A DNA stretch of 64,000 nucleotides from Candidatus Omnitrophota bacterium (GTDB lineage: Bacteria; Omnitrophota; Gorgyraeia; Tantalellales; Tantalellaceae). Every line of letters begins with the position of its first letter. Position 1 is the stretch's first letter. The stretch spans positions 13,368 to 77,367 of the forward strand of contig JAQUQS010000002.1 of NCBI GenBank assembly GCA_028715965.1. Reading direction: 5' to 3'. The translations under genes were made by a program, and so were the position numbers. The notes beneath the pieces were generated by a model, which made no database searches, was not told the DNA's origin, and was given only the letters and a program-made list of their open reading frames with translations. Positions 38,608 through 58,334 of this stretch are shown here, piece by piece.

Positions 38608-39504
38608 CTATTCCTCTTCCGGCCTGGTCTTCCATCTTTTGTGCATCCAGACCCATTGTTCGGGATATTCCCTGACATATCTTTCCAAAAGCGATGTCCA
38701 CTCCTCCGTATAACGCCTTATGTTCCCGTCCACATCGTCACCTTTTACCGGATATATCGGTTCTTCTATGACCACCCTGTGGGTATTGTCTTTTTTCCTT
38801 ATTACGAATACCGGCACGATCCCGGTGCCGACAGCCATCGCTATCTTGACCGGGGCCACCGGGGTATACGCTTTCCTGCCGAAATAATCCACAAAGACGC
38901 CGTTAACACTGTCCACGTCCTGGTCCGGAACTATCCCGACCACCTCTCCCCTGTGAAGCGCCCCCAGCATCTTCTTTGGCGATTCGTCGCGATATATCAC
39001 CTTCGCGTTGTACCGGGCCCTCATCTTCTCAAGGAACTTGTTATACTTGTAGAAGTACACCTTTCTGGCCACAAGTGAACCGTTATACCCGATATGCGCG
39101 AGGTATAACCCCGCGAGCTCCCAGTTCCCGAAATGAAAAGTTATTATCAGGGCGCCACGCCCCCCGGCCAGGACGCTGTCCAGATGTTCCCTGCCGGAGA
39201 CCTCCGTGACCATGCTGTCGATCACCGACACCCGGGAGAACAACAACTTGACCCATTCCACGCCGTTCATAGCCACGTTCCGGAAAACATTTTCCGCGAT
39301 CTTACGGTTCCTGTCGCCGTTCCCCGGGAACGCGGCGTCCAGGTTGGCCACAGTGGTCTTCGCGTATCCCGGCAGCAACCTAAAGACCAGGCGCCCCAGC
39401 GCGGCCGCCAATGCCATGCCCGCCCTTAGCGGCAACAACGCCAGCAGGAAGAACAATGTCTTGGCAAGGTAATATATATAATACCGTCTATATTTTATCT
39501 TCAT
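38608..39504 (-). CDS. lipid A biosynthesis late acyltransferase (LpxL/HtrB/MsbB family)
   Basis: N-terminal TM segment, HFGNWE catalytic motif, and a C-terminal QWVWMHKRWK motif. Confidence 0.8.
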   Translation of the reverse strand: MKIKYRRYYIYYLAKTLFFLLALLPLRAGMALAAALGRLVFRLLPGYAKTTVANLDAAFPGNGDRNRKIAENVFRNVAMNGVEWVKLLFSRVSVIDSMVTEVSGREHLDSVLAGGRGALIITFHFGNWELAGLYLAHIGYNGSLVARKVYFYKYNKFLEKMRARYNAKVIYRDESPKKMLGALHRGEVVGIVPDQDVDSVNGVFVDYFGRKAYTPVAPVKIAMAVGTGIVPVFVIRKKDNTHRVVIEEPIYPVKGDDVDGNIRRYTEEWTSLLERYVREYPEQWVWMHKRWKTRPEEE

Positions 39505-44094: not shown

Positions 44095-44898
44095 TTAATA
44101 CCCCTCTTGTGTGCCCGTATCTTCCGGTGTTCCATATGTCCCGGCGGCCACCAGTTCCCTTACTTTTAAAAGATCTTCTTCCGTATCCACGCCTATCGTA
44201 TCATACCTTGTCTCGACTGTCTTTATCTTATATCCGTGTTCGAGCACCCTGAGCTGCTCAAGTTTTTCATCCTGTTCAAGCATGGATTTAGGCAGATTCG
44301 TGAACGCGAGAAGGAATTCCCTGGTATAGGAATACATGCCTATATGCTTGAAGTACATCCCGTTCACGGTTTCCGGCGCGCGCTCCTCTTCCGGCCGGAC
44401 GATGTCCCTGCGCACATAAGGTATCGGGCTCCTGGAAAAATACAGGGCGTAACCTTTCCTGTCGACCACGCACTTGACCACATTCGGGTCTTTCACCTCT
44501 TCTTCCCGCGTTATCCTTTTTATAAGCGTGGCCATCTGCACATTGGGTTCGTATTCGAACACCCTGGCAAGCTCATCTATCATGCTGGGGTGGACCAGCG
44601 GTTCATCCGCCTGGATGTTTATATACACGTCCGCGTCAACACTTCCAGCTATCTCCGCGATACGGTCCGTACCCGAAGCGTGGTCCGGCGACGTGTACAT
44701 GGCCCGTCCCCCGAAAGATTCCACCGCTTTGAACACTTTTTCCCTGTCCACGGCAACTATCACTTCATCGACCAGCTCCGCGTTCTTAGCCCTTTCCCAC
44801 ACATGTTGCAACATAGGTTTGCCGTCAATATCAGCGAGCACCTTCCCCTTTAGACGCGAAGAATGCCACCTGGCCGGGACAACCGCTACTACCTTCAT
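44095..44898 (-). CDS. kdsB: 3-deoxy-manno-octulosonate cytidylyltransferase (CMP-Kdo synthetase)
   Basis: VVAVVPARWHSSRLKGK N-terminus. Confidence 0.9.
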   Translation of the reverse strand: MKVVAVVPARWHSSRLKGKVLADIDGKPMLQHVWERAKNAELVDEVIVAVDREKVFKAVESFGGRAMYTSPDHASGTDRIAEIAGSVDADVYINIQADEPLVHPSMIDELARVFEYEPNVQMATLIKRITREEEVKDPNVVKCVVDRKGYALYFSRSPIPYVRRDIVRPEEERAPETVNGMYFKHIGMYSYTREFLLAFTNLPKSMLEQDEKLEQLRVLEHGYKIKTVETRYDTIGVDTEEDLLKVRELVAAGTYGTPEDTGTQEGY

Positions 44899-45902
44899 AC
44901 ACGGACCCTTTCTATCTCTAATTTAAGACGCGAAAGCAGCTCCTCTTCGGAAACAACGGCTACGCCTATCTTGCCCACGACTATACCCGCGGCACAATTG
45001 GCGATATGCGCGGCTATCTCGGGCGAGCCACCACTCACTACTCCCAGGGTATACACACCTATCACGGTATCCCCCGCGCCGGAAACATCAAAGACCTCCT
45101 GCGCGACCGTGGGTATCCTGTGCGGCTTCCTACCCTGCTCGAAGACCATCATGCCTTCCTCCCCGAGGGTAAGCAATATCACCTTGGCCTTGAGTTTTTC
45201 CAGCATCCTGGCGCCAGCCTTCATTTTCGTGTTCTCATCGGAAACGGAGAACCCTACCGCCTTAGCCGCCTCATGATGGTTCGGGGTTATGGCATCGACG
45301 CCTTTATAATACGCGAAATGGCTTTCCTTGGGATCCACGGTGACTATTTTCCCGCTTTTTTTCGCCAGGGGAACGACTTTCTTCAGGAGGGACGGGGTTA
45401 TGAGCCCTTTGCCGTAATCCTCTATGATCACACCGTCATACCGGTCTATGTTACGCTTGATGTAATCATATACCTTTTCCATGTATTTGTGGGAGATAAC
45501 ATCGACGTTCTCACGGTCTATCCTGACCACCTGCTGATGATGCGCTATCACCCGCGTCTTCAGGATAGTAGGTCTTTCCGGGTCTATCACGACACCGTCC
45601 GTGTTTATGCTCCTCTCCTCGAGTTGTTGCTTCAGGACCTTGCCGTTGATGTCATCGCCGACCACACCCACGACCGACACCTTGGCTCCCAGCTTGGCGA
45701 TATTATTAGCCACATTACAGGCCCCTCCGGGCATGAACCCTTCGTTCCTTACCCAGACCACAGGCACAGGAGCTTCGGGAGATATCCTCGAGACCTGTCC
45801 CCATATGAACTGGTCCAGCAGAAGATCCCCAAGGACCAGTATCTTCCTATCCTTGAACCTGTTAACTATCTTGGCTAAAGCGGAGAACTTATAATGCTTC
45901 AC
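44895..45902 (-). CDS. D-glycero-beta-D-manno-heptose-7-phosphate kinase (RfaE/HldE domain I only, PfkB family)
   Basis: ILVLGDLLLDQFIWG N-terminus and a PfkB C-terminal motif. At 335 aa it has no adenylyltransferase domain. GTG start after AGGAGGGA. Confidence 0.8.
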   Translation of the reverse strand: MKHYKFSALAKIVNRFKDRKILVLGDLLLDQFIWGQVSRISPEAPVPVVWVRNEGFMPGGACNVANNIAKLGAKVSVVGVVGDDINGKVLKQQLEERSINTDGVVIDPERPTILKTRVIAHHQQVVRIDRENVDVISHKYMEKVYDYIKRNIDRYDGVIIEDYGKGLITPSLLKKVVPLAKKSGKIVTVDPKESHFAYYKGVDAITPNHHEAAKAVGFSVSDENTKMKAGARMLEKLKAKVILLTLGEEGMMVFEQGRKPHRIPTVAQEVFDVSGAGDTVIGVYTLGVVSGGSPEIAAHIANCAAGIVVGKIGVAVVSEEELLSRLKLEIERVRV

Positions 45903-46520: not shown

Positions 46521-47552
46521 TCAAACGCCCAGAACCTTGCTGACGGAGCTCATCACCTCGTCCACGGTAACAGCTTTTATACACGCGAAATCGCGTTCGC
46601 ACTCATGCGCCAGACATCGCTCGCAGCCAACATCTTTATGCAGGACCGTATCCCCGGCCCCGACCGGCCCCCATCTTCGCGGGGATAATCCCGCGTCTTT
46701 GCGCCCGAATACGGCGATGACCGGAGTGCCTACGGCGACCGCCACGTGGACCGGACCGGAATCGTTCGAGATAAGCAGGCGGCACCTGGACAGGAATTCC
46801 GCGAATTCACCCAGCAGCAATCCGCCGGTAAGGTCCACCGGTTCCTCTTTCATCAAGGACACCACTGAACTCGACATCCCCTCGGACTCATTCCCTCCCA
46901 CGAATATCACACGCGCCCCGAATTCTTTACTTATCCTGTCCGCCACTTCGGCGAACCTGCCGGTAGGCCATCTTTTAGACCTGCAACTCGCCCCGACATG
47001 CATAGCAACCAGCTCTCCCGTCAATCCGTTATCTTTGATAACGGCATCGACCATTTTTTTGTCAGCGTCGGATGTGCTCATGTAAGGCATTCTGTCATAA
47101 AGCGTTACATCAACGCCAGCCAGCGCCAAAAGATCGAAATTATAGTCTATCTCGTGTTTGGCGCCTTCCTGCTTGATATGTGGCGCCCTCTTTGTCAAAA
47201 GGAACGGAAGTCTTTTGTCATATCCAACACGTTCCGGTATCCCTGCCAGGAACGCCACGATATGAGAACGGTTGGTCGGGTGCAGTATTATGGCCGTATC
47301 AAATCTTTTCTTTCTCAGTTCCCACGCGAAAAGCACCGTGCCCACGAACCCTTTCTGGGCTCCTTCCTTGTCATATATTATCACCTCATTGATATCGGGG
47401 TTATCCTCCACTATGTCCCGGTTCCCGGGCTTTACCATGAACGCGATATACGCGTCGGGGTAAAGTTTCCTTAAATGCCGCGCCACAGGAGTGGAAAGCA
47501 CCACATCCCCCAGTCTGTCCGTGCGTGTGACAAGTATACGTTCCATGGTCAT
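46521..47552 (-). CDS. ADP-heptose:LPS heptosyltransferase (GT9)
   Basis: GT9 N-terminus (ILVTRTDRLGDVVLSTPVARHL) and C-terminal GT-B motifs. Confidence 0.8.
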   Translation of the reverse strand: MTMERILVTRTDRLGDVVLSTPVARHLRKLYPDAYIAFMVKPGNRDIVEDNPDINEVIIYDKEGAQKGFVGTVLFAWELRKKRFDTAIILHPTNRSHIVAFLAGIPERVGYDKRLPFLLTKRAPHIKQEGAKHEIDYNFDLLALAGVDVTLYDRMPYMSTSDADKKMVDAVIKDNGLTGELVAMHVGASCRSKRWPTGRFAEVADRISKEFGARVIFVGGNESEGMSSSVVSLMKEEPVDLTGGLLLGEFAEFLSRCRLLISNDSGPVHVAVAVGTPVIAVFGRKDAGLSPRRWGPVGAGDTVLHKDVGCERCLAHECERDFACIKAVTVDEVMSSVSKVLGV

Positions 47553-48295: not shown

Positions 48296-48820
48296 TTATC
48301 GAGCCGGGTTCATCCCTCTACCAGACGTTATCTCGCTATATATCTTACGGTAAATATCAAGATCCCCTGATGAAAAACACACGTACACTATTTCATCAAG
48401 ATCGTCCTTGTGTTTCAGGCCCTCCTCAAGGGCTATCCTCGCCGCGGCCTCGACCGGGTATCTGTAGACACCGGTGCTTATCGCGGGAAAAGCGATGGAC
48501 CTTAGAGAATGTTCGGCGGCCAGCCGGAAACTGGCGGCATAACAGCTCCTGAGAAGCTCAGCCTCGCCGCTCTTTCCTCCATGCCATACCGGACCGGGCG
48601 TATGTATTATTTTTTTAGCCTTCAGCCTGCCCGCGCCCGTTATCACGGCCTCTCCCGTACGGCATCCACCTATCCGGCGGCATTCTTCCATGACCGAAGA
48701 CCCGGCCGCGCGATGTATTGCCCCATCGACGCCGCCTCCTCCTTTAAGGCCGGTATTCGCGGCGTTAACGATAACGTCGACCTCTTCCTGTGTTATGTCA
48801 CCGTGTTTTATGGTGATCAT
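48296..48820 (-). CDS. macro-domain protein (ADP-ribose / O-acetyl-ADP-ribose binding or hydrolase)
   Basis: Macro-domain motifs VIVNAAN...GGGGVDGAIHRAAG; start ATG overlaps the upstream GT9 stop as ATGA. Confidence 0.8.
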   Translation of the reverse strand: MITIKHGDITQEEVDVIVNAANTGLKGGGGVDGAIHRAAGSSVMEECRRIGGCRTGEAVITGAGRLKAKKIIHTPGPVWHGGKSGEAELLRSCYAASFRLAAEHSLRSIAFPAISTGVYRYPVEAAARIALEEGLKHKDDLDEIVYVCFSSGDLDIYRKIYSEITSGRGMNPAR

Positions 48821-49848
48821 TCCCATTCCGTACCTTCCAATATCTTCTCGGCCGCCCTGTATACCTCCTCAACGGTCACGTCGTTTATACAGCCGTCCGG
48901 AGGACGTTTCTGGCACGACCCCTTACCGCATGGCCTGCACCCTATCCGCGGGTTAAGCACAACGCTCTTTTCCGCAAGAGGACCGTATTTTTTTTCGTCG
49001 GTAGGCCCGAAAATAGCTACCGTGGGCGTCCCGACGGCGCTCGCGATGTGGAGCGGCGCGCTGTCTCCGGTTATCACCATACATGCCCTGGCCATAAGCC
49101 CGGCGGCACAGCCTATCGTGGTACGAGAACAGACATCCAGCACCGGACGCTTGGTGGCCGCTATAACATCGTTCACGGTCTGGCGGTCCTCATCCGTTCC
49201 GGTAAGGAAAACAATACAATCTTTCTCCCCGGAAAGCATATCCGAGAGTTTCGCGTAATTGGACGCTTTCCATTTTTTCAGGTGGTTCTTGGTCCCCGGG
49301 TTGATCACTACTATCCTGTCCCGCTGCACACCCGGGCCAAGCGTTCTTTCCGCTTCCACGATAAGGCTTTCCGCCTGACGCGCGTCCTCTTCGGATACCG
49401 GGACATAGAACCCAACATCCCTTTCCGCGTCAATACCAAGCGTTCTCAGTTTTGCGAGATGTTCCGTTCTCTTATGCGCCGTCACCCCGGATGATAGCCT
49501 CTTTATCCCGCCAAGGAACGACGACAATGACCTTGTTCCGTACCTCGCGCCTGCCACATACGGCATAAGTGAGTTCTTGAGGTCGACCACAAGGTCATAT
49601 TTCTGTCTGCGGGTGAGCAGGACGTCGAGTAACCTGGAGCGTAACGTTTTCCTCCGTTTGTTTATTATCACCTTACGCACCGCGGGGTGGGCCAGGAATA
49701 TGTCCCTGCCAGGCATACCCGTCACGACATCGATAACGGCATCGGGAAATTCGTCATGCAGCTTCCGTAGCACCGGGGTGGTAAGGACTATATCGCCCAG
49801 GTTGCTCAGGCTTATCAGAAGGATGCTTTTTACGCGGGACTTGTCCAT
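48817..49848 (-). CDS. ADP-heptose:LPS heptosyltransferase (GT9)
   Basis: ILLISLSNLGDIVLTTPVLRKL GT9 N-terminus. Confidence 0.8.
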   Translation of the reverse strand: MDKSRVKSILLISLSNLGDIVLTTPVLRKLHDEFPDAVIDVVTGMPGRDIFLAHPAVRKVIINKRRKTLRSRLLDVLLTRRQKYDLVVDLKNSLMPYVAGARYGTRSLSSFLGGIKRLSSGVTAHKRTEHLAKLRTLGIDAERDVGFYVPVSEEDARQAESLIVEAERTLGPGVQRDRIVVINPGTKNHLKKWKASNYAKLSDMLSGEKDCIVFLTGTDEDRQTVNDVIAATKRPVLDVCSRTTIGCAAGLMARACMVITGDSAPLHIASAVGTPTVAIFGPTDEKKYGPLAEKSVVLNPRIGCRPCGKGSCQKRPPDGCINDVTVEEVYRAAEKILEGTEWE

Positions 49849-50888
49849 ATCCGGTCCTTGTTCTTTAATGCGTCCCTTATCGCGGAAAAAACCGTATCAA
49901 CCCCGATCGAATACATGCACACATTGTTATTCCTGCATTTTTTCACATAGCAGGGTACGGCACAATCGGGCGAGCTCCTAATGACGATATTCCGTCCTCG
50001 TCCGCGCTGCCCCGTTATTTCCGGTGACGTAGGGCCGAAAAGGCCTATCGTAGTGGCGCCCGTGGCCGACGCCAGGTGAAGCGGACCCGAATCCGCGCTT
50101 ACCACAAGTTCCGAGGAAAGAAAAAGAGCGGCAAGCTCGTTGAGCGATGTCCTTCCGGCCGTGTTATATACGCGTTCCCCCCCAGCCTCACTCACGATGG
50201 TATCCCCCAGCGTCCTGTCCCCCGGGGCCCCGGTTATGACTATGTCAAGGTCCCTGAAAGCCCATAGTATCTGGCGTGCCAGCGATATGAAATTCATCGG
50301 CGACCATCTTTTCGCGTCCCAGTTCCCACCGGGGTTCAGTACGATGAAAGGATTTCTTCCCACTCCTATCCCGGACAGGATGCGTTCCATCCTTTCCTTA
50401 TCATCGTCCCTTATGAAGTACTCATAAGTCCCGTCCGCCTTGTCAATGCCGAACAGACCTGCCAGGGAAAGAAGCTGGTCGGCCCTGTGCACCGCGCCGT
50501 TCGGGCACGCGACTTCCGAGGTGAGCGGGAGGTTCTTCCCGGCGAACCCTACGCGTTCCGGGATACCCGCCAGCATGGACATGATCACCTTGGTCCTGGA
50601 CGCTTTGAGGAATACCGCGGTACCATACTTCTCTTTTTTTACCATATCCACGAAATCGAGCTTTTCGCCCACTGAGAAGATACGGTTATCATCCGAAAGC
50701 ACATGCACGTAATTGATCCATGGCACATTGGCCAACAGGTCGGCGTATCTGGGGACCACGACGCAGCTGATATACGCGGTCGGGAATCTTAAACGCAAAG
50801 CCCTCAAGAGGGGGAAGGAAAAAAGTATGTCCCCCAGCCAGTTAAGTTCAAAAATAATAATGCGCTTAGGGCTCTCGACGTCCGTCAC
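49830..50888 (-). CDS. ADP-heptose:LPS heptosyltransferase (GT9)
   Basis: IIIFELNWLGDILFSFPLLRAL GT9 N-terminus. Confidence 0.8.
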   Translation of the reverse strand: MTDVESPKRIIIFELNWLGDILFSFPLLRALRLRFPTAYISCVVVPRYADLLANVPWINYVHVLSDDNRIFSVGEKLDFVDMVKKEKYGTAVFLKASRTKVIMSMLAGIPERVGFAGKNLPLTSEVACPNGAVHRADQLLSLAGLFGIDKADGTYEYFIRDDDKERMERILSGIGVGRNPFIVLNPGGNWDAKRWSPMNFISLARQILWAFRDLDIVITGAPGDRTLGDTIVSEAGGERVYNTAGRTSLNELAALFLSSELVVSADSGPLHLASATGATTIGLFGPTSPEITGQRGRGRNIVIRSSPDCAVPCYVKKCRNNNVCMYSIGVDTVFSAIRDALKNKDRIWTSPA

Positions 50889-51970
50889 AGGACCTCCTGG
50901 TATACCTCAATGGTCTTCTCCACGCTTGTATGGATATCATAGTTGTCGAACGCTTTTCTCCTGGCGGCTTTCGCCAGGTCTTTCCTCAGGATATCATCTT
51001 TTGCCAGTTCCATCAATCTTTTAGCAAGCGCGGCGACGTCTCCCGGAGGAGCCAGCAATCCGTCCCGACCGTCCGTTATGAGCTCCGAAAGACCGCCTAC
51101 ATCGCTGGCCACACAGGCCCTCTCGGCCGCCATGGCCTCCATGAGCGAAAGCCCCAGTCCTTCGTGCATTGATGGGGAGCAGAAAATATCGAACATGGGC
51201 AGATACTCTTCCGGCGGCTGTCCGCCGGGGACCATGGAGACCTTCCCGGCCAGCCCCAGTGAAGTTATCTGTTTTTCCAAAGATTTTTTTTCCGGCCCGT
51301 CTCCCACCATCACCATGCGCGCTCGAGGTTCCTCCGCGGCCAGGGCCGAGAACGCTTCCACGAGATACTTATATCCTTTCACCGGGGAAAGCCGCCCTAT
51401 CGTGCCCACGACGAACGTGTCCTGGGGTAGCCCCATCTCCCGCAGCATGGTCGCGTCCTTACGCCCGGATATACCCGAGAACCTGGCAAGTTCGATACCG
51501 TTATAGACCATGGATATCTTGTTCTCAGGCACCCCGAAATCCCTGATAAGATGCCCTTTTACGCTGTTACTTATAGCAATTACCCTGTTCCCCCACGCGG
51601 GCAGAAGCATCCTTGAGATACGTTTGTGTTTGAAGAAACCGTGGCACGTGGATACGAACGGGATGCCCGTCCTGCGGCTCACCACCTCGGATATTATCTG
51701 GGTCACCCGTGTTTGGGCGTGTATGACCTGCGTATCCTCTTCCCTGGCCAGTTCTCCTATGGCACCGACCGCTTTCCATACCTTCAGGGAAAATTCCTGT
51801 TTGGTCAATATATCCGCCGTATGATGTTTTACGCCATACTCCGCGAGCTTACCCTCGAGTTCGCCTCCACCCGAGACCACTGTTACTTTATGCCCGTACC
51901 TATGGAGATATCGGGACAGGTCCGTGATATAGACGCCCACCCCGCCCATGTTCATATGCGTTGTTATTAT
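50885..51970 (-). CDS. glycosyltransferase family 4 (GT-B, retaining)
   Basis: GT4 N-terminus (MNVMIITTHMNMGGVGVY) and C-terminal E.....E motif region (MHEGLGLSLMEAMA). Confidence 0.8.
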   Translation of the reverse strand: MITTHMNMGGVGVYITDLSRYLHRYGHKVTVVSGGGELEGKLAEYGVKHHTADILTKQEFSLKVWKAVGAIGELAREEDTQVIHAQTRVTQIISEVVSRRTGIPFVSTCHGFFKHKRISRMLLPAWGNRVIAISNSVKGHLIRDFGVPENKISMVYNGIELARFSGISGRKDATMLREMGLPQDTFVVGTIGRLSPVKGYKYLVEAFSALAAEEPRARMVMVGDGPEKKSLEKQITSLGLAGKVSMVPGGQPPEEYLPMFDIFCSPSMHEGLGLSLMEAMAAERACVASDVGGLSELITDGRDGLLAPPGDVAALAKRLMELAKDDILRKDLAKAARRKAFDNYDIHTSVEKTIEVYQEVL

Positions 51971-51978
51971 CATCACGT

Positions 51979-54063
51979 TCATAAAAGCTCCATCACGGCA
52001 TTGTATATATCCGCCGGTTTTATGGACGTCATACATCTCCGGTCACGTCGGCAGATCGGGTCGTAACACGGTGAGCATTTCACCTTACGATGCAGGACCT
52101 TTTTCTTTCCGGAAGGAGGAAGGTGCCTTGCCGGGTCCGTAGGCCCGAAATACGACACAAAAGGGGTATTCACCGCCGAAGCTACATGCATCGGCGCGCT
52201 GTCCCCCGTAACAACGATATCACACCTCTTTATAAGCGCGATAAACTGGCCGATATTGGTCTTTCCTACAGCGTCTATCGGTTTTGCCAAAGTGGTCTTC
52301 ATGAATTCGGACGCTTCCAGTTTATCTTCTTCCGCGCCGATCAGGACCGTCCTTACTCCCCGTTCTTTCGCGAGCATATCAGCTACCTTAACAAGTGTGG
52401 GGACGCCCACGTTCTTGGACCTCCATTTCCTTGAAGCGGAAACGCTCATGGCAACTATCTTCTGGTCTTTTTGCAGCCAATTGCCGCCAAAGAACTTCTC
52501 CGCCCATTCCTCGTTCTCCGGCGTAGGCCATAGTTCCAGGTTATCGTCCACATGCGCTATGCCCAGAAGGGCCAGCACACATCCCTGCTGCCGGACCGGC
52601 GGCATGGGCCGTGCAGGCATCTTGGCCTTCCTGTTGAGAAGCACGCTCAGCTTACCGTTATTGAACCCGTATCTCTCCGGTATGGCCGCCAAATACGCCA
52701 GCATATGGCTCTTCCGGCTGTTCTGCAGGTCGATCGACATGTCGAGATCTTCCGACCTTATCGCCCCGGCCAGACGAAGGAACCCGACACCCTTGTCCCT
52801 TGTTCTGAAATCACATGTGATCACATCATCGATATAAGGGCATCCACTGAGCACTTCACGGAACCTTATGTCGGCCAGCACTTTTATTTCCGCGCCCGGG
52901 AAAGCTTTCCTGACAGCCCTCATTGAAGGTACCGCGAGTATAATATCCCCAAGCGAGCTTATCTTCATGATGAGTATGTTCTTCATGGAAAGCGCTTTGG
53001 AATAAACTTCAAGGGTACTTTCCATTACCTTGCCAAGGGAAAAATGATCTTCCACGTTCTTCCGGGCGGCCCTGGAGACCCTTTCTACCAGCTCACGGTC
53101 CTGGGCATACCTCATGACCTTTTCGGCGATATCGGACGGGTTCATGGGTTCACACAAAAGACCGGTCACTCCGTCCTCAACGTTCTCGACCACTCCACCT
53201 ACTCTCGTGGCGACTACCGGCACCCCCCTGGCCTGGGCCTCTATTATCGACCTGCCGAACGCCTCCTGGCTACGATTCGCGGAAACGAACACGTCCAGGT
53301 CCTTCAGGACCTCGGCCACATCATGGCTCGAGTCTATGAACCTGATCACGTTCTCAAGTCTCAGCCGCCTCACGGTAAGGTCTACCCTCTTCAGGTAATC
53401 CTCTTTCGCCGAGGCCCTGTCCCCCATTATCACGATCTCAAGATTGTTCATCCGCCTGGAAACATATGACATCGCCTTCAAAAAGTCCTGGTGTCCCTTA
53501 AGGGGCGTGTACCGGCATATCATACCGACCCGGAATTTCTTTCGGTCCTTATCGAACGGCGACACGTACCCGAAACGCTCAAGGTCTACCCCCCTCGGTA
53601 TTATGGATAGTTTCCTCGTCGGCACGCCGAATTTGTCTTTCATATATCTGGCCATAGTATCATTTGCCACGATAACGATCTTGCCCCATCCCATAACACG
53701 GCTTATAAGGTGCGGTTTGTACTGCCCGTGAGCGGTGGTCAAGAACACCTTGCCGGTGGATTTTGCCGCGAAATACCCCATTAGGGCCGGGATACGGCTC
53801 CTGGCGTGGACTATATCGATACTTTCCTTGCGTATTATGCGCCTTAGGCATATATACGACCATATCATCGTGATGGGATTTTTCTTTCCCACAGGCACGG
53901 TGTAGTGCCTGGCACCGATGGCCGCCAGATTGCCCTCGTATATCCCGCCGCCGGAGACCACGACGGCCTTGTGCCCTTTGGCCACAAGGGCACGCGCGAC
54001 CTCCACTGTGCCTTTCTCCACCCCGCCTACGTTCAATCTCGGGACAAGTTGTAATATGTTCAT
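51979..54063 (-). CDS. bifunctional glycosyltransferase: N-terminal GT4 fused in-frame to C-terminal GT9 heptosyltransferase
   Basis: A 694-aa ORF. The GT4 part runs to ...TLEVYSKALS and is directly followed by MKNILIMKISSLGDIILAVP, a GT9 N-terminus, with no intervening stop. I checked the junction codons on the sequence. Confidence 0.75.
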   Translation of the reverse strand: MNILQLVPRLNVGGVEKGTVEVARALVAKGHKAVVVSGGGIYEGNLAAIGARHYTVPVGKKNPITMIWSYICLRRIIRKESIDIVHARSRIPALMGYFAAKSTGKVFLTTAHGQYKPHLISRVMGWGKIVIVANDTMARYMKDKFGVPTRKLSIIPRGVDLERFGYVSPFDKDRKKFRVGMICRYTPLKGHQDFLKAMSYVSRRMNNLEIVIMGDRASAKEDYLKRVDLTVRRLRLENVIRFIDSSHDVAEVLKDLDVFVSANRSQEAFGRSIIEAQARGVPVVATRVGGVVENVEDGVTGLLCEPMNPSDIAEKVMRYAQDRELVERVSRAARKNVEDHFSLGKVMESTLEVYSKALSMKNILIMKISSLGDIILAVPSMRAVRKAFPGAEIKVLADIRFREVLSGCPYIDDVITCDFRTRDKGVGFLRLAGAIRSEDLDMSIDLQNSRKSHMLAYLAAIPERYGFNNGKLSVLLNRKAKMPARPMPPVRQQGCVLALLGIAHVDDNLELWPTPENEEWAEKFFGGNWLQKDQKIVAMSVSASRKWRSKNVGVPTLVKVADMLAKERGVRTVLIGAEEDKLEASEFMKTTLAKPIDAVGKTNIGQFIALIKRCDIVVTGDSAPMHVASAVNTPFVSYFGPTDPARHLPPSGKKKVLHRKVKCSPCYDPICRRDRRCMTSIKPADIYNAVMELL

Positions 54064-54076
54064 GTTCCGCCTTCTA

Positions 54077-55966
54077 TCAAAAAACCTTTTCTATCTTGGA
54101 GTATAGTTCATCCATATCTTCCGGAAGATGCCGCGCGGCCATCCCGGTGGTCATGGCCGTGCGCATATCCTCCGCAAGGACCTCCCTGCGAAGCTTCTTA
54201 AGGTATCCCCGTCCGGCCAGTTCGTCCACAAAAACATCGTATTTGGTCTTTCCCCGGCGTTTCTTGTCGGGCATTATCACGAAAACGGGCCTGCCGGATG
54301 AAACCGCTTCGGAAACCATTGATATACTGTCCCCCGTCACGAACACTATATCGCTCGAGGCCAGTATCTTGTCCACCGTTTTCGCGTCATTGTCGCTTTT
54401 TCCCGAAACGAATTTAAGGCATCTCTCATCCTCCCGGAGCATGTCCTGGAACGTCTTGTCGGCGTCCGGAGGCGTTCTTCTGGACGTGGTCAACATGAAC
54501 CGGGTCCCGGTATCCCCACACGAACCCGACAGCGCTTCGGATATATCCCTGGCCGTCGCCTCGCTGAACGTGTAGAACCTGTTCTCCCCTCCTATAAGCA
54601 CGCCGACACATTTTATCCCATCAAGACCGTTCCTCTCCTTACCCCTAAGGTCCTCGAGTTCCGATATATCGACCAGCGTGGGCGGCATATCGGTGACCAC
54701 GACGTTAGCCCCTATGGGCGACAGCCCCTTCCTTACCACGTCGTGCCGGGGCAGCACGATAAGGTCGAACCCCCAGCGGTTCATCCGTCCCGGGTCCATT
54801 ATGGTCAGGTTCTTGGCGCCATTCTCCGACGAGACCAGCCTGTTGACCCCGTAAAGCGCCGAGCCGCAACTTATCACGACATCAGCGTATACGGAGATGA
54901 TAGCGTCATAACTTCCCGGTTCAAGCGCCCATTTCAGCAGGAAAGGACGCCCCTGAAAGAGGTCACCGTATAGTGGCGAGAACATGTTCAGGATAGTACG
55001 CCTCACGCGGCTCTTGAACTTCACGGACACCGTCTTTACTTCCAAAGCTCCTTCCGGCATGTTCCTTTTTTCTTTCCAGTAACGACCTGCCGTACCGGCC
55101 ACGGCCATGGACTGTTTGAAATGCCCCTTCTTCCCATCGTCCAGCACGAGCACTTTACGTACAGGGGTCAGCTTCCACTTCTTATGCATCCACATCCATT
55201 GGTCCGGGGACTTTCTTACATGTTTCTCCAGGAGCTCGTTATATTTTTCCACATACGGCGTTATATCCTCGTTCTTGCCGATGACCATAGGTTCCTCCAG
55301 GACGGCCTGATGGTAAGGGCCGTCCACGCGGTGTATAAAGGCCGGTAATATCCAGGCACCTGTTTTTTGCGCGAACCTGTATGGTCCCACAGCCGTAGAG
55401 GCCGGTCGCCCGAAGAGGTTGACGAGCTTACCATTGGGGCCGGCGTTCTGATCGGCCAGTATACCCACGCTCTTACCTTCCTTGAGTACCCGGAAAAGGT
55501 TCTTAATATCAGCACCCTTCCGTATCACAATGTTACCCTTAGACTCCCGCAGGCGGTTAAGAAGTTCGTTAAGCCTCTGCATTTTCTGGTCTCTGGCCAA
55601 GAGGTACAGGGGATACCCCTGGAAAACACTGGCCACGGTGCTCATTTCCCAATTACCGAAATGCGCCGACACCATTATCATCCCCCGCGGGTTGGAAGCG
55701 GCTTTTCCCAGGTTCTCGCTGTTGATTATCTCCAGATGCTTTTCCAGGTATTCCCGGTCAACCTTGGTAAGCGCCAATATCTCCACGAACGTCTGGACCA
55801 TGTTTCGATACGTGCCTATGGTCAATCTCCTGATGTCGCGGGGACTTTTTTCGGACGCGAACGCCGCCCGGATATTCCTGTACGTTACCTTACGGCGTTT
55901 CCCGCTCAGAAGATAAATGAGATAACCGAACGCCCGGCCGGCCCAGAGGTTCAAACCCATCGGCAT
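54077..55966 (-). CDS. fusion of LpxL-family lipid A late acyltransferase (N-terminal) with an ELM1/DUF1022-like predicted GT-B domain (C-terminal)
   Basis: HFGNWE acyltransferase motif and the ...PDQWMWMHKKWK end, then VLVLDDGKKGHFKQSMAVAG, which resembles ELM1-family N-termini. The domain assignment is from memory of family signatures; start trimmed to MPMGLN to avoid overlap with lpxK. Confidence 0.65.
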   Translation of the reverse strand: MPMGLNLWAGRAFGYLIYLLSGKRRKVTYRNIRAAFASEKSPRDIRRLTIGTYRNMVQTFVEILALTKVDREYLEKHLEIINSENLGKAASNPRGMIMVSAHFGNWEMSTVASVFQGYPLYLLARDQKMQRLNELLNRLRESKGNIVIRKGADIKNLFRVLKEGKSVGILADQNAGPNGKLVNLFGRPASTAVGPYRFAQKTGAWILPAFIHRVDGPYHQAVLEEPMVIGKNEDITPYVEKYNELLEKHVRKSPDQWMWMHKKWKLTPVRKVLVLDDGKKGHFKQSMAVAGTAGRYWKEKRNMPEGALEVKTVSVKFKSRVRRTILNMFSPLYGDLFQGRPFLLKWALEPGSYDAIISVYADVVISCGSALYGVNRLVSSENGAKNLTIMDPGRMNRWGFDLIVLPRHDVVRKGLSPIGANVVVTDMPPTLVDISELEDLRGKERNGLDGIKCVGVLIGGENRFYTFSEATARDISEALSGSCGDTGTRFMLTTSRRTPPDADKTFQDMLREDERCLKFVSGKSDNDAKTVDKILASSDIVFVTGDSISMVSEAVSSGRPVFVIMPDKKRRGKTKYDVFVDELAGRGYLKKLRREVLAEDMRTAMTTGMAARHLPEDMDELYSKIEKVF

Positions 55967-55982
55967 AACATGAAAAACGGCG

Positions 55983-57038
55983 TTAAGACCCCTGACTATG
56001 TAAGACGCTATCAAGTCCAGCAAGGACCGACTCCTTTCCCCTGACAATATCCATATCAACATTGAGGGCAAGTATCTTATCACGCAATACGCCCAATTCC
56101 AGCTCGGCCAGTTTAACCATGTCTTTTTTTGTGACCACGATATTATCCGCTCCGGAAGCCGCGAAGCGGCCCCCTATCTCCTCGACATCTGAGGCGGTAT
56201 ACGCGTGATGGTCATCATATACCATATGGCCGGTCAATTCCATCCCGCATCGCCCGGCGATAAGCTCGAACGAACCCGGTGACGCTATACCGCTCACGAG
56301 CAGGACCTTCTTGTTCTTCGCGTTCCCCAGAGAGGTGTTCTTTCCCGAGACATCGGACAGAGAAACGGGCCGGCGGATGGATTCCGCGACCAGCTTCCCT
56401 GAAATGACGTTACCCAGCCGGGATAATACGGTGTTCCTTTGCGCCTCTCCCATTTCAGACGTTCCCGTAACGACCACGATATCCGCCCTCGAAAGCGCGC
56501 TTATACGTTCCCTGAAAGGCCCGCGTGGCAAAAGGCCCGTATTCCCCGCCATAGAATCCGCGTCCACAAGCACTATATCAAGGTCCCTCTCGAGCGCGCG
56601 GTGCTGGAACCCGTCATCCATGACCAGGACATCGCACCCCTTGGACACGGCATAAGCTGCGGACTTGACCCTGTCCCTGCCTACCACTACAGGTACTTCC
56701 GGCAACTCCCCGGCAAGCATCTTATCCTCGTCCCGGCCATACCCCCTTGTCAGGATGGCGGGACGGCATCCCCTGCCCGCGAGTTCGCGCACGATATACA
56801 GAGAGAACGGCGTTTTGCCGGTACCTCCCGCGGTTATGTTGCCGACACTTATGACCGGCACATCCACTTTGGTCGTTTTCCTGAATCCCCTCCTGTAAGC
56901 CAGGTCCACGAACCATATGCCCGCGCCATAAAGAAGTGACAGCGCCCACAACACCCACTTCAGAGGTAGCAGCGCGGGACGCGCCCCTTCGTCCTTCATG
57001 ACCCCCGTGATCCAAAGTCTCAGATCGCCCATATCCAT
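55983..57038 (-). CDS. lpxK: tetraacyldisaccharide 4'-kinase
   Basis: P-loop VGNITAGGTGKTP. Confidence 0.9.
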   Translation of the reverse strand: MDMGDLRLWITGVMKDEGARPALLPLKWVLWALSLLYGAGIWFVDLAYRRGFRKTTKVDVPVISVGNITAGGTGKTPFSLYIVRELAGRGCRPAILTRGYGRDEDKMLAGELPEVPVVVGRDRVKSAAYAVSKGCDVLVMDDGFQHRALERDLDIVLVDADSMAGNTGLLPRGPFRERISALSRADIVVVTGTSEMGEAQRNTVLSRLGNVISGKLVAESIRRPVSLSDVSGKNTSLGNAKNKKVLLVSGIASPGSFELIAGRCGMELTGHMVYDDHHAYTASDVEEIGGRFAASGADNIVVTKKDMVKLAELELGVLRDKILALNVDMDIVRGKESVLAGLDSVLHSQGS

Positions 57039-57053
57039 TCCCCTCGGTGGATA

Positions 57054-58334
57054 TCACCCCAGAAATCTATCAAGCAGGCTTACTGTCCGATCGACCGCGC
57101 CTGAATTCTCCCGTATGACATCTACGGCCTTCCTTGATATATTCCTCCTCATGCCATCGTCCTTTATAAGCCTTTCAAGCACCTGTTCAAGCTCATCAGC
57201 GTCCGCGACCTGGATAGCGCCTTCCCTGGAAAGGAACATCCGGACAGCTTCCTTGAAATTATACATGTTCGGCCCGAAAACGACCGGTTTCCCGTAACTT
57301 GCCGGTTCTATAATGTTCTGTCCGCCTTTTTTTACAAGACTCCCGCCCACGAACACTATAGTGGCAAGGGCATACATATCCTTAAGGTGCCCTATGCTGT
57401 CCACGACCATTACGTCGTACGTCCCGGTCTTCCCGCCGCCTGGCGCCCCTTTCCCGCGCAGCCCTGAATACGCCATATGCCTCAGCCCGGCTTCCTCGAT
57501 ATACACTTTTACCGCTTCGACCCTTTCCACATGTCTCGGCGCGATTATGAGCTTGAGCCCGGGTATCCTGCCGGAAAGTCTCTTATATACATCGATCAAC
57601 TGGGATTCCTCGTTGAAATGGGTGCTCCCGGCCACTATTATAAGGTCATCCTGCCGCATGCCTATATCCTCGGGTCTTACCGGAAGCGGCAGGCCCTCAG
57701 ATATACCCTGGTCGAACTTAACATTGCCTGTGACCGTAACCCTTTCCGTGGCGGCGCCCATACGAACGATACGCGAAGCATCATCCTTCGTCTGCACGGA
57801 AAAAACATCTATACATCCCAGCATTCCAGAAATGAAAGGCTTTACCTTAAGATAGTTCCTGAAAGACCTGTCGGATATCCTTCCGTTCACTACGGCTATG
57901 GGCACACCTTTCCTTTTAAGCGCCGTCATCAGGTTTGGCCACAGTTCCGTTTCGATCACGACATAGAGCCTGGGGTTTATCTTCGATATCACCCTCGAGA
58001 CTATAAAACTGATGTCCAGGGGATAATAGAACACCCTGTCGACCACACCCTTGCCCGCCTTTTCCATCATGTCTTGTCCCGTGGTCGTCGTGGTCGAGAC
58101 CACGATGGGCACACCGGGTGACCTTTTCCTGATGCCCTTTGCTATACGCGCGGCGACATTCGCCTCACCCACGCTCACCGCGTGTATCCAGACAGGCGCG
58201 TCGAGCCCGTCCATGGACCTTCCAAACGCCCCGAACCGTTCCAGGAAACGTCCGTGCGCCTTGCCTTTCAAGACCAGGCAAGGCAGGTAGAACAGTCCGA
58301 ACAGCATAAAAAATATATCATATAAGATACGCAT
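57054..58334 (-). CDS. waaA: 3-deoxy-D-manno-octulosonic acid transferase (Kdo transferase)
   Basis: WIHAVSVGE N-terminal motif; GT30-like over the full length. Confidence 0.9.
   Translation of the reverse strand: MRILYDIFFMLFGLFYLPCLVLKGKAHGRFLERFGAFGRSMDGLDAPVWIHAVSVGEANVAARIAKGIRKRSPGVPIVVSTTTTTGQDMMEKAGKGVVDRVFYYPLDISFIVSRVISKINPRLYVVIETELWPNLMTALKRKGVPIAVVNGRISDRSFRNYLKVKPFISGMLGCIDVFSVQTKDDASRIVRMGAATERVTVTGNVKFDQGISEGLPLPVRPEDIGMRQDDLIIVAGSTHFNEESQLIDVYKRLSGRIPGLKLIIAPRHVERVEAVKVYIEEAGLRHMAYSGLRGKGAPGGGKTGTYDVMVVDSIGHLKDMYALATIVFVGGSLVKKGGQNIIEPASYGKPVVFGPNMYNFKEAVRMFLSREGAIQVADADELEQVLERLIKDDGMRRNISRKAVDVIRENSGAVDRTVSLLDRFLG

Follow-up and report, generated by a model that had tools for sequence, protein, structure and literature searches.

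A GT4::GT9 glycosyltransferase fusion without a linker, probably ancient, in the lipid A/core-oligosaccharide operon of Candidatus Omnitrophota

Two glycosyltransferases that share one uninterrupted reading frame may constitute a true bifunctional enzyme or the accidental product of a lost stop codon. This question is raised by a gene located on the minus strand, at positions 51979 to 54063, of a 64,000-nucleotide stretch of DNA from a Candidatus Omnitrophota bacterium (GenBank assembly GCA_028715965.1, contig JAQUQS010000002.1, positions 13,368 to 77,367 of the forward strand). This whole stretch is referred to here as the window, and all positions are those of the window. A sequence-only reading of the gene had proposed an in-frame fusion of a complete family GT4 glycosyltransferase to a complete family GT9 heptosyltransferase, and considered it either a genuine bifunctional core-oligosaccharide enzyme or the result of a stop codon lost very recently; an error of assembly or sequencing was named as what would refute the fusion. 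Our analysis indicates that the gene very probably encodes two complete GT-B glycosyltransferases genuinely joined in a single polypeptide, an ancient fusion that is fixed across Candidatus Omnitrophota as part of a lipid A/core-oligosaccharide operon. In the list of open reading frames (ORFs), the gene is a single ORF that starts with ATG and runs through 694 codons to a TGA stop. The 694-amino-acid product comprises the following parts:

52987..54063, minus strand: GT4 module (retaining, GT-B fold), residues 1-359; Pfam models PF13439, PF00534 and PF13692 all match above their cut-offs
52984..52986, minus strand: junction codon ATG (Met360), where the last GT4 helix gives way to the first GT9 strand
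51982..52983, minus strand: GT9 module (inverting, GT-B fold, heptosyltransferase-like), residues 361-694; matched by PF01075 and TIGR02195

The Pfam matches of both modules are far beyond chance. In the first module, PF13439 (Glyco_transf_4) covered residues 12-163 with 94.9 bits against a cut-off of 28.5, and PF00534 (Glycos_transf_1) covered residues 172-335 with 120.2 bits against a cut-off of 26.4 (E value of 9e-35). In the second, residues 429-671 matched PF01075 (Glyco_transf_9) with 106.1 bits against a cut-off of 22 (E value of 2.4e-30). The NCBIfam alignments extended further. The GT4 half aligned with a 374-position GT4 model from residue 3 to residue 358 (positions 4-374), the alignment to TIGR03088 spanned this module from end to end, and residues 362-694 of the GT9 half aligned with positions 1-338 of the 339 positions of TIGR02195 (heptosyltransferase II), scoring 143.1 bits against a cut-off of 134.6. 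Because these alignments run end to end, both parts are complete and are joined in one frame without any linker, as the sequence-only reading had claimed. The junction codons that it quoted (...ACC CTT GAA GTT TAT TCC AAA GCG CTT TCC ATG AAG AAC ATA CTC ATC ATG...) were also found to be correct, and the translation across the junction reads ...TLEVYSKALS M KNILIMKISSLGD.

In support of this domain structure, an AlphaFold model computed from the alignment reached a mean predicted local distance difference test score (pLDDT) of 92 and a predicted template modelling score (pTM) of 0.85. In the model, the last GT4 helix (residues 343-359) is followed within two residues by the first GT9 strand (residues 362-366). 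The solved structure closest to the GT4 half was 7mi0, a GT4 enzyme of Rickettsia africae (E value of 2e-50, template modelling (TM) score of 0.84, 31% identity), and the target-normalised TM scores of the GT9 half were 0.88 to 3tov and 0.80 to 1psw, which places it in the GT-B fold. No solved chain covering both modules was found, the query-normalised TM score being at most 0.47. Hence, by sequence, motifs and fold, the first module belongs to CAZy family GT4 and the second to CAZy family GT9.

The fusion was then followed through its relatives. A metagenome-assembled genome labelled Candidatus Omnitrophica (GCA_028710465.1, contig JAQTUB010000002.1) encodes a protein with 100% identity to the product. 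The same gene was present, with 0 mismatches in 2085 bases, in two assemblies built separately from the single runs SRR22315508 and SRR22315506, the contigs of which differ from the window at 8-9 positions elsewhere over 17.7 kb. Among the best 120 database matches, the complete proteins of which measure 693-717 amino acids and are 48-67% identical to the window protein, both module types were present in every homologue except for one partial protein cut by a contig end, and all of the more than 110 homologous protein clusters within this identity range are fused. Residues 335-390, which include the junction, are free of gaps in all of the 114 full-length homologues. The junction residue itself varies, being Met in 11 of the 114 sequences and S, R, T, L, V, Q, K and others in the rest.

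A scan of one genome per species recovered 211 genomes with a relative of the gene, and the best 80 of these, harbouring 85 loci, were analysed. In these 80 genomes, all labelled either as Omnitrophota or with placeholder "uncultured Planctomycetia" names, the match spans residues 1-694, with the exception of a few cut contigs, and the gene is always fused. When the loci were classified as fused or split by BLASTP against stop-free frames, a single segment spanned the junction inside one stop-free frame in 85 of 85 loci, and not one locus was split. The comparison of fused and split orthologues, which the sequence-only reading had suggested as a check, thus gave a uniform result. An exhaustive search of 50%-identity cluster representatives showed that the identical zero-linker junction is kept in relatives down to about 30% identity. 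A fused gene with 37% identity, set in the same gene neighbourhood, occurs in a metagenome-assembled genome labelled Chlamydiota; otherwise, cluster look-ups for the distant fused relatives gave hardly any organism names. Outside the phylum, no split orthologue pair was detected: upstream of the closest stand-alone GT9 (P0181, 42% identity) there is no GT4 gene, so that an ancestral split arrangement was not found.

We next considered whether both halves can be active. In an alignment of 91 sequences (this protein and 90 homologues), the G13-G14 loop, R184, K189 and the E267-x7-E275 motif (codons 53239-53265) of the GT4 module are invariant, and so are G372-D373, K550, D621-S622, H626 and G640-P641-T642 of the GT9 module. 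The key GT9 codons are located as follows:

52945-52947, minus strand: D373, invariant
52414-52416, minus strand: K550, invariant
52186-52203, minus strand: D621-S622...H626, invariant

Alignment to Escherichia coli WaaF (PDB 1psw) placed D373 on the Asp of its GD motif, K550 on the Lys of KRW and D621 on the Asp of DSG. The three residues are equivalent to D13, K192 and D261 of HepI, and mutation of these reduces HepI activity about 900- to 4700-fold (PMC5713226). The overall level of conservation is similar in the two halves. Both modules are therefore predicted to be catalytically intact, and of the two origins offered by the sequence-only reading, that of a genuine bifunctional core enzyme is borne out by the conserved fusion, the invariant residues and the operon described below, while that of a recent stop loss or error is refuted.

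The gene lies in a tightly packed minus-strand operon, and the relevant features of the locus are as follows:

57054..58334, minus strand: WaaA/KdtA, transferase of 3-deoxy-D-manno-octulosonic acid (Kdo), by domain search
55983..57038, minus strand: LpxK, tetraacyldisaccharide 4'-kinase, by domain search
54077..56083, minus strand: LpxL-type lipid A late acyltransferase fused to ELM1 (PF03279 and PF06258); the public call is 648 amino acids, 54077-56023
51979..51982, minus strand: ATGA overlap of the fused-gene stop (TGA, 51979-51981) with the GT4b start (ATG, 51980-51982)
50885..51982, minus strand: GT4b, stand-alone GT4 of 365 amino acids, 30% identical to the fused GT4 module
49830..50888, minus strand: GT9b, stand-alone GT9 of 352 amino acids, GTG start with AGGAGG upstream
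48817..49848, minus strand: GT9c, stand-alone GT9 of 343 amino acids, by Pfam and NCBIfam
46521..47552, minus strand: GT9d, stand-alone GT9 of 343 amino acids, TIGR02195 at 144.4 bits, above the cut-off
44895..45902, minus strand: D-glycero-beta-D-manno-heptose-7-phosphate kinase, TIGR02198 at 388.2 bits against a cut-off of 345

GT9c is followed by a macro-domain gene and two small genes before GT9d is reached, and KdsB, KdsA, KdsD, KdsC, a second LpxL, LptC and LptB are encoded farther along in the window. The order WaaA/LpxK/LpxL::ELM1/GT4::GT9/GT4/GT9/GT9/GT9 was found again in homologues at 50-57% identity. It is the commonest order among the 85 loci and is complete in 40 of them, contig ends breaking most of the others. 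The ATGA overlap between the fused gene and GT4b may be taken as a sign of translational coupling, and the heptose-7-phosphate kinase is predicted to supply the pathway to adenosine diphosphate (ADP)-heptose. This kinase is of the stand-alone RfaE domain I type and not a bifunctional HldE.

The gene content of the locus and the motifs of the protein suggest that the fusion is most likely a bifunctional inner-core enzyme adding heptose and hexose to Kdo2-lipid A. Its site of action would be the cytoplasmic side of the inner membrane, and its acceptor the Kdo2-lipid A made by the products of the adjacent WaaA, LpxK and LpxL genes. The GT9 module would use ADP-heptose, a donor that fits because a heptose-7-phosphate kinase is encoded nearby, and, with an Asp as base as in the inverting reaction of HepI and HepII, would attach heptose to the Kdo or to a heptose of Kdo2-lipid A. 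A hexose taken from a nucleotide sugar would be transferred by the GT4 module, whose E-x7-E site would work with retention. In the GT-B fold, the last helix packs back onto the N-terminal, acceptor-binding domain of its own module. This helix of the GT4 module is predicted to continue, with no linker between, into the strand that opens the GT9 N-terminal domain, and the acceptor-binding domains of the two modules would therefore be rigidly fixed next to each other. Such rigid coupling of the modules fits the total absence of insertions and deletions at the junction. The fusion would also fix the two enzymes at a 1:1 ratio, and their proximity would allow neighbouring or successive sugars to be added to the same lipid-anchored acceptor. 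The identity of the donors, the attachment positions on the acceptor, the sequence of the two steps and any transfer of an intermediate from one site to the other are inferred.

Several observations weigh against this reading. The GT4 module scores far below the cut-offs of curated GT4 subfamilies, its best match being TIGR03088 with 138.1 bits against a cut-off of 409. The PelF model gave 69.5 against 100, and the scores of the named GT4 subfamilies searched in NCBIfam (PEP-CTERM stp2, EpsE, BshA, MshA, PelF, the lipopolysaccharide (LPS) N-acetylglucosamine-transferase and others) were all below their cut-offs. The heptosyltransferase II label of the GT9 half exceeds the TIGR02195 cut-off by only 8 bits, the stand-alone paralogue at 46521-47552 equals it on this model (144.4 vs 143.1 bits), and the stricter RfaF model NF008162 yielded 82 against 569. 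The assignment of HepI, HepII and HepIII roles to the four GT9 modules by NCBIfam scores was rejected, as the scores do not discriminate between them. Of ADP-heptose synthesis, only the kinase step was identified, and the examined part of the window yielded no gene for the adenylyltransferase, GmhA, GmhB or the epimerase. The relative orientation of the two active sites is predicted from the pTM and the chain topology. Finally, the window protein has V552 at a position where at least 90% of the homologues have Trp, within a K-N-W motif.

This last substitution speaks for the possibility that the fusion is real and yet has a single activity, one of its modules being a catalytically dead scaffold or acceptor-binding domain. 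Degeneration does occur in this architecture. In the very distant zero-linker members P0167, P0176, P0182, P0216 and P0265, the GD motif of the GT9 module is replaced, for example by IQD, IQE or PKE, which suggests that the GT9 half may be non-catalytic in some distant lineages of the family. In the window protein and its 90 homologues, however, none of the catalytic or donor-binding residues checked varies in either module, and the halves are conserved to a similar degree, so that a dead module is improbable here.

That the fused enzyme modifies not the LPS inner core but a protein, capsule, outer core or O-antigen is quite improbable as well. Enzymes with targets other than the core are known in both GT9 and GT4, and the autotransporter heptosyltransferases of GT9 glycosylate protein. 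Moreover, the specificity models assign neither module uniquely to a subfamily, and according to a preprint, one hyper-variable polysaccharide cassette in an Omnitrophota genome contains a 'heptosyltransferase II' gene. The fused gene is nevertheless always located between the lipid A acyltransferase/LpxK/WaaA genes and further GT9 genes, close to genes for the Kdo and heptose precursors, and this synteny is kept across the phylum.

The in-frame ATG situated exactly at the module boundary could in principle allow internal initiation at Met360, with a free GT9 protein produced beside or instead of the fusion. We consider such a pair of translation products very improbable. The sequence upstream of the Met360 ATG, TTCCAAAGCGCTTTCC, does not resemble a Shine-Dalgarno sequence and no such element was found ahead of this codon, while the downstream genes carry GGAG or AGGAGG. 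The Met is shared by only 11 of the 114 homologues, and with no stop ahead of Met360, the full-length product would be made anyway. The rarity of this Met and the lack of a Shine-Dalgarno-like sequence also give no support to the suggestion that ATGAAG at the junction is a relic ATGA coupling site. Because the junction Met occurs in so few homologues, the ATG/ATGA of the window gene is coincidental.

Least probable of all, to the point of being practically negligible, is that two genes merged very recently through a lost stop codon or a frameshift, or that the junction reflects a mistake in assembly or sequencing. The linker-free junction does hold an ATG within an ATGA that could serve for coupling if the frame were shifted, and ATGA or GTGA overlaps are indeed seen between adjoining gene pairs of the operon. 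However, two independent single-run assemblies agree on the gene base for base, all 85 loci of the 80 species genomes and the more than 110 clusters have it fused, and its ungapped junction, with a Met that is not conserved, stays fixed down to about 30% identity.

An ancient origin of the fusion from a gene merger through an ATGA-type overlap is, by contrast with a recent one, plausible, and a second gene pair of the same operon is instructive here. GT4b and GT9b of the window overlap by GTGA at 50885-50888 and are separate genes. In three other Omnitrophota species, this pair is fused (L063, 8130-10334; L071, 4003-6135; L079, 8128-10341); the fused frames, each free of stops, measure 711-738 codons and contain short linkers that vary. 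Because the GT4b/GT9b pair is also fused in these species, GT4-GT9 fusion has arisen two or more times within the operon, and loss of an overlapping stop is the probable route. The repeated fusion within one operon hints at a functional pairing of the two enzyme types. Among the distant representatives, P0180 has a junction of the same type as the fused GT4b/GT9b proteins. An origin of the operon by tandem duplication of a GT4-GT9 pair was also considered; the paralogues are 27-31% identical and show no specific pairing, which neither supports nor excludes it.

A further step would be to regard the linker-less junction, kept from 67% to about 30% identity, as the mark of a fixed retaining/inverting two-site machine that works on one lipid A-core acceptor and, together with the independent fusion of the second pair, to regard GT4-GT9 pairs as obligate physical partners in core assembly. 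We put this forward as a tentative idea that is more doubtful than not. If true, a complex held together non-covalently in other bacteria would become visible in the fusion, and the protein would offer a natural model for the organisation of LPS core glycosyltransferases at the membrane.

How does the protein compare with known systems? Its GT9 module resembles the GT9 enzymes WaaC (HepI) and WaaF (HepII) of E. coli (PDB 2H1H and 1PSW) in its GT-B fold, in the full-length, above-cut-off match to the HepII model, in the equivalents of D13, K192 and D261 and in an operon setting with WaaA and ADP-heptose pathway genes. Unlike WaaC and WaaF, which are stand-alone proteins of about 320-350 amino acids, it forms the C-terminal half of a 694-amino-acid protein, and it is only about 23% identical to WaaF. 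Near the C terminus of the module, we observed an invariant cluster of four cysteines, C663/C666/C671/C677 (C-x2-C-x4-C-x5-C; 52033-52077, minus strand), which may be a metal-binding site. Similar Cys patterns are present in at least two of the stand-alone GT9 paralogues of the window (CRPCGKGSCQKRPPDGC and CAVPCYVKKCRNNNVC). To our knowledge, E. coli WaaF lacks such a C-terminal cluster.

The GT4 module shares the GT-B fold, the E-x7-E motif and the R/K diphosphate-binding residues with stand-alone GT4 enzymes (R. africae 7MI0, BshA, PglA, HepE and the WaaG type). Unlike these, it is joined to another module at its C terminus without a linker and scores far below the cut-offs of the named subfamilies. 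As a whole, the fusion belongs to the well-known class of multi-module glycosyltransferases. WbdA of E. coli O9a, for example, has two GT4 modules, and our search for distant relatives also returned GT4-GT4, GT9-GT9 and triple-GT4 proteins as well as other GT4-GT9 fusions with linkers. Like the members of this class, the window protein carries at least two complete GT-B modules in one polypeptide, is associated with a lipid-linked glycan and holds its modules at a fixed stoichiometry and in proximity. In contrast to proteins of the WbdA type, it combines two CAZy families, a retaining GT4 and an inverting GT9, across a rigid junction that lacks a linker, and its gene is found in a lipid A/inner-core operon and not in an O-antigen polymerisation locus.

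Since multi-module glycosyltransferases are common, no current view is overturned by the fusion. What the analysis does correct is a likely misreading of the gene, which is neither an artefact nor a fresh gene merger. It also concerns public annotation. The identical protein and most of its fused homologues, of which the databases hold hundreds, are named "lipopolysaccharide heptosyltransferase II". This name ignores the GT4 half, so that public annotation hides half of the protein, while the product names of the Joint Genome Institute give both activities for some of the distant fused relatives. Full-text literature searches found no paper that describes or tests the zero-linker GT4::GT9 architecture and none on PDB 7MI0, and two candidate preprints name heptosyltransferases only in other contexts. 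For LPS biology, the fusion represents a phylum-wide natural pair of core glycosyltransferases and an entry point to the LPS core of Omnitrophota, a largely uncultured phylum. The fused pair could be expressed as one stable protein in studies of successive core sugar addition.

A few minor observations on the loci were also made. In two of them, the stop-free frame of the fused gene runs about 75-350 codons upstream of the homologous start (L075, 674-3844; L082, 5776-8133). The LpxL::ELM1 gene of the window encodes PF03279 at residues 25-304 and PF06258 ('mitochondrial fission ELM1') at residues 320-638; this fusion is kept in nearly all related loci and appears as two ORFs in one of them (L013). 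A second LpxL-type acyltransferase, a stand-alone protein of 298 amino acids (38608-39504, minus strand), adjoins lptC and lptB, which gives the genome a pair of late acyltransferase paralogues, of which one is the ELM1 fusion. Finally, the macro-domain protein encoded within the LPS core operon (PF01661, 176 amino acids; 48296-48826, minus strand) overlaps the end of a GT9 gene, and its gene is absent from the matching position in two of the related loci (L004 and L005).

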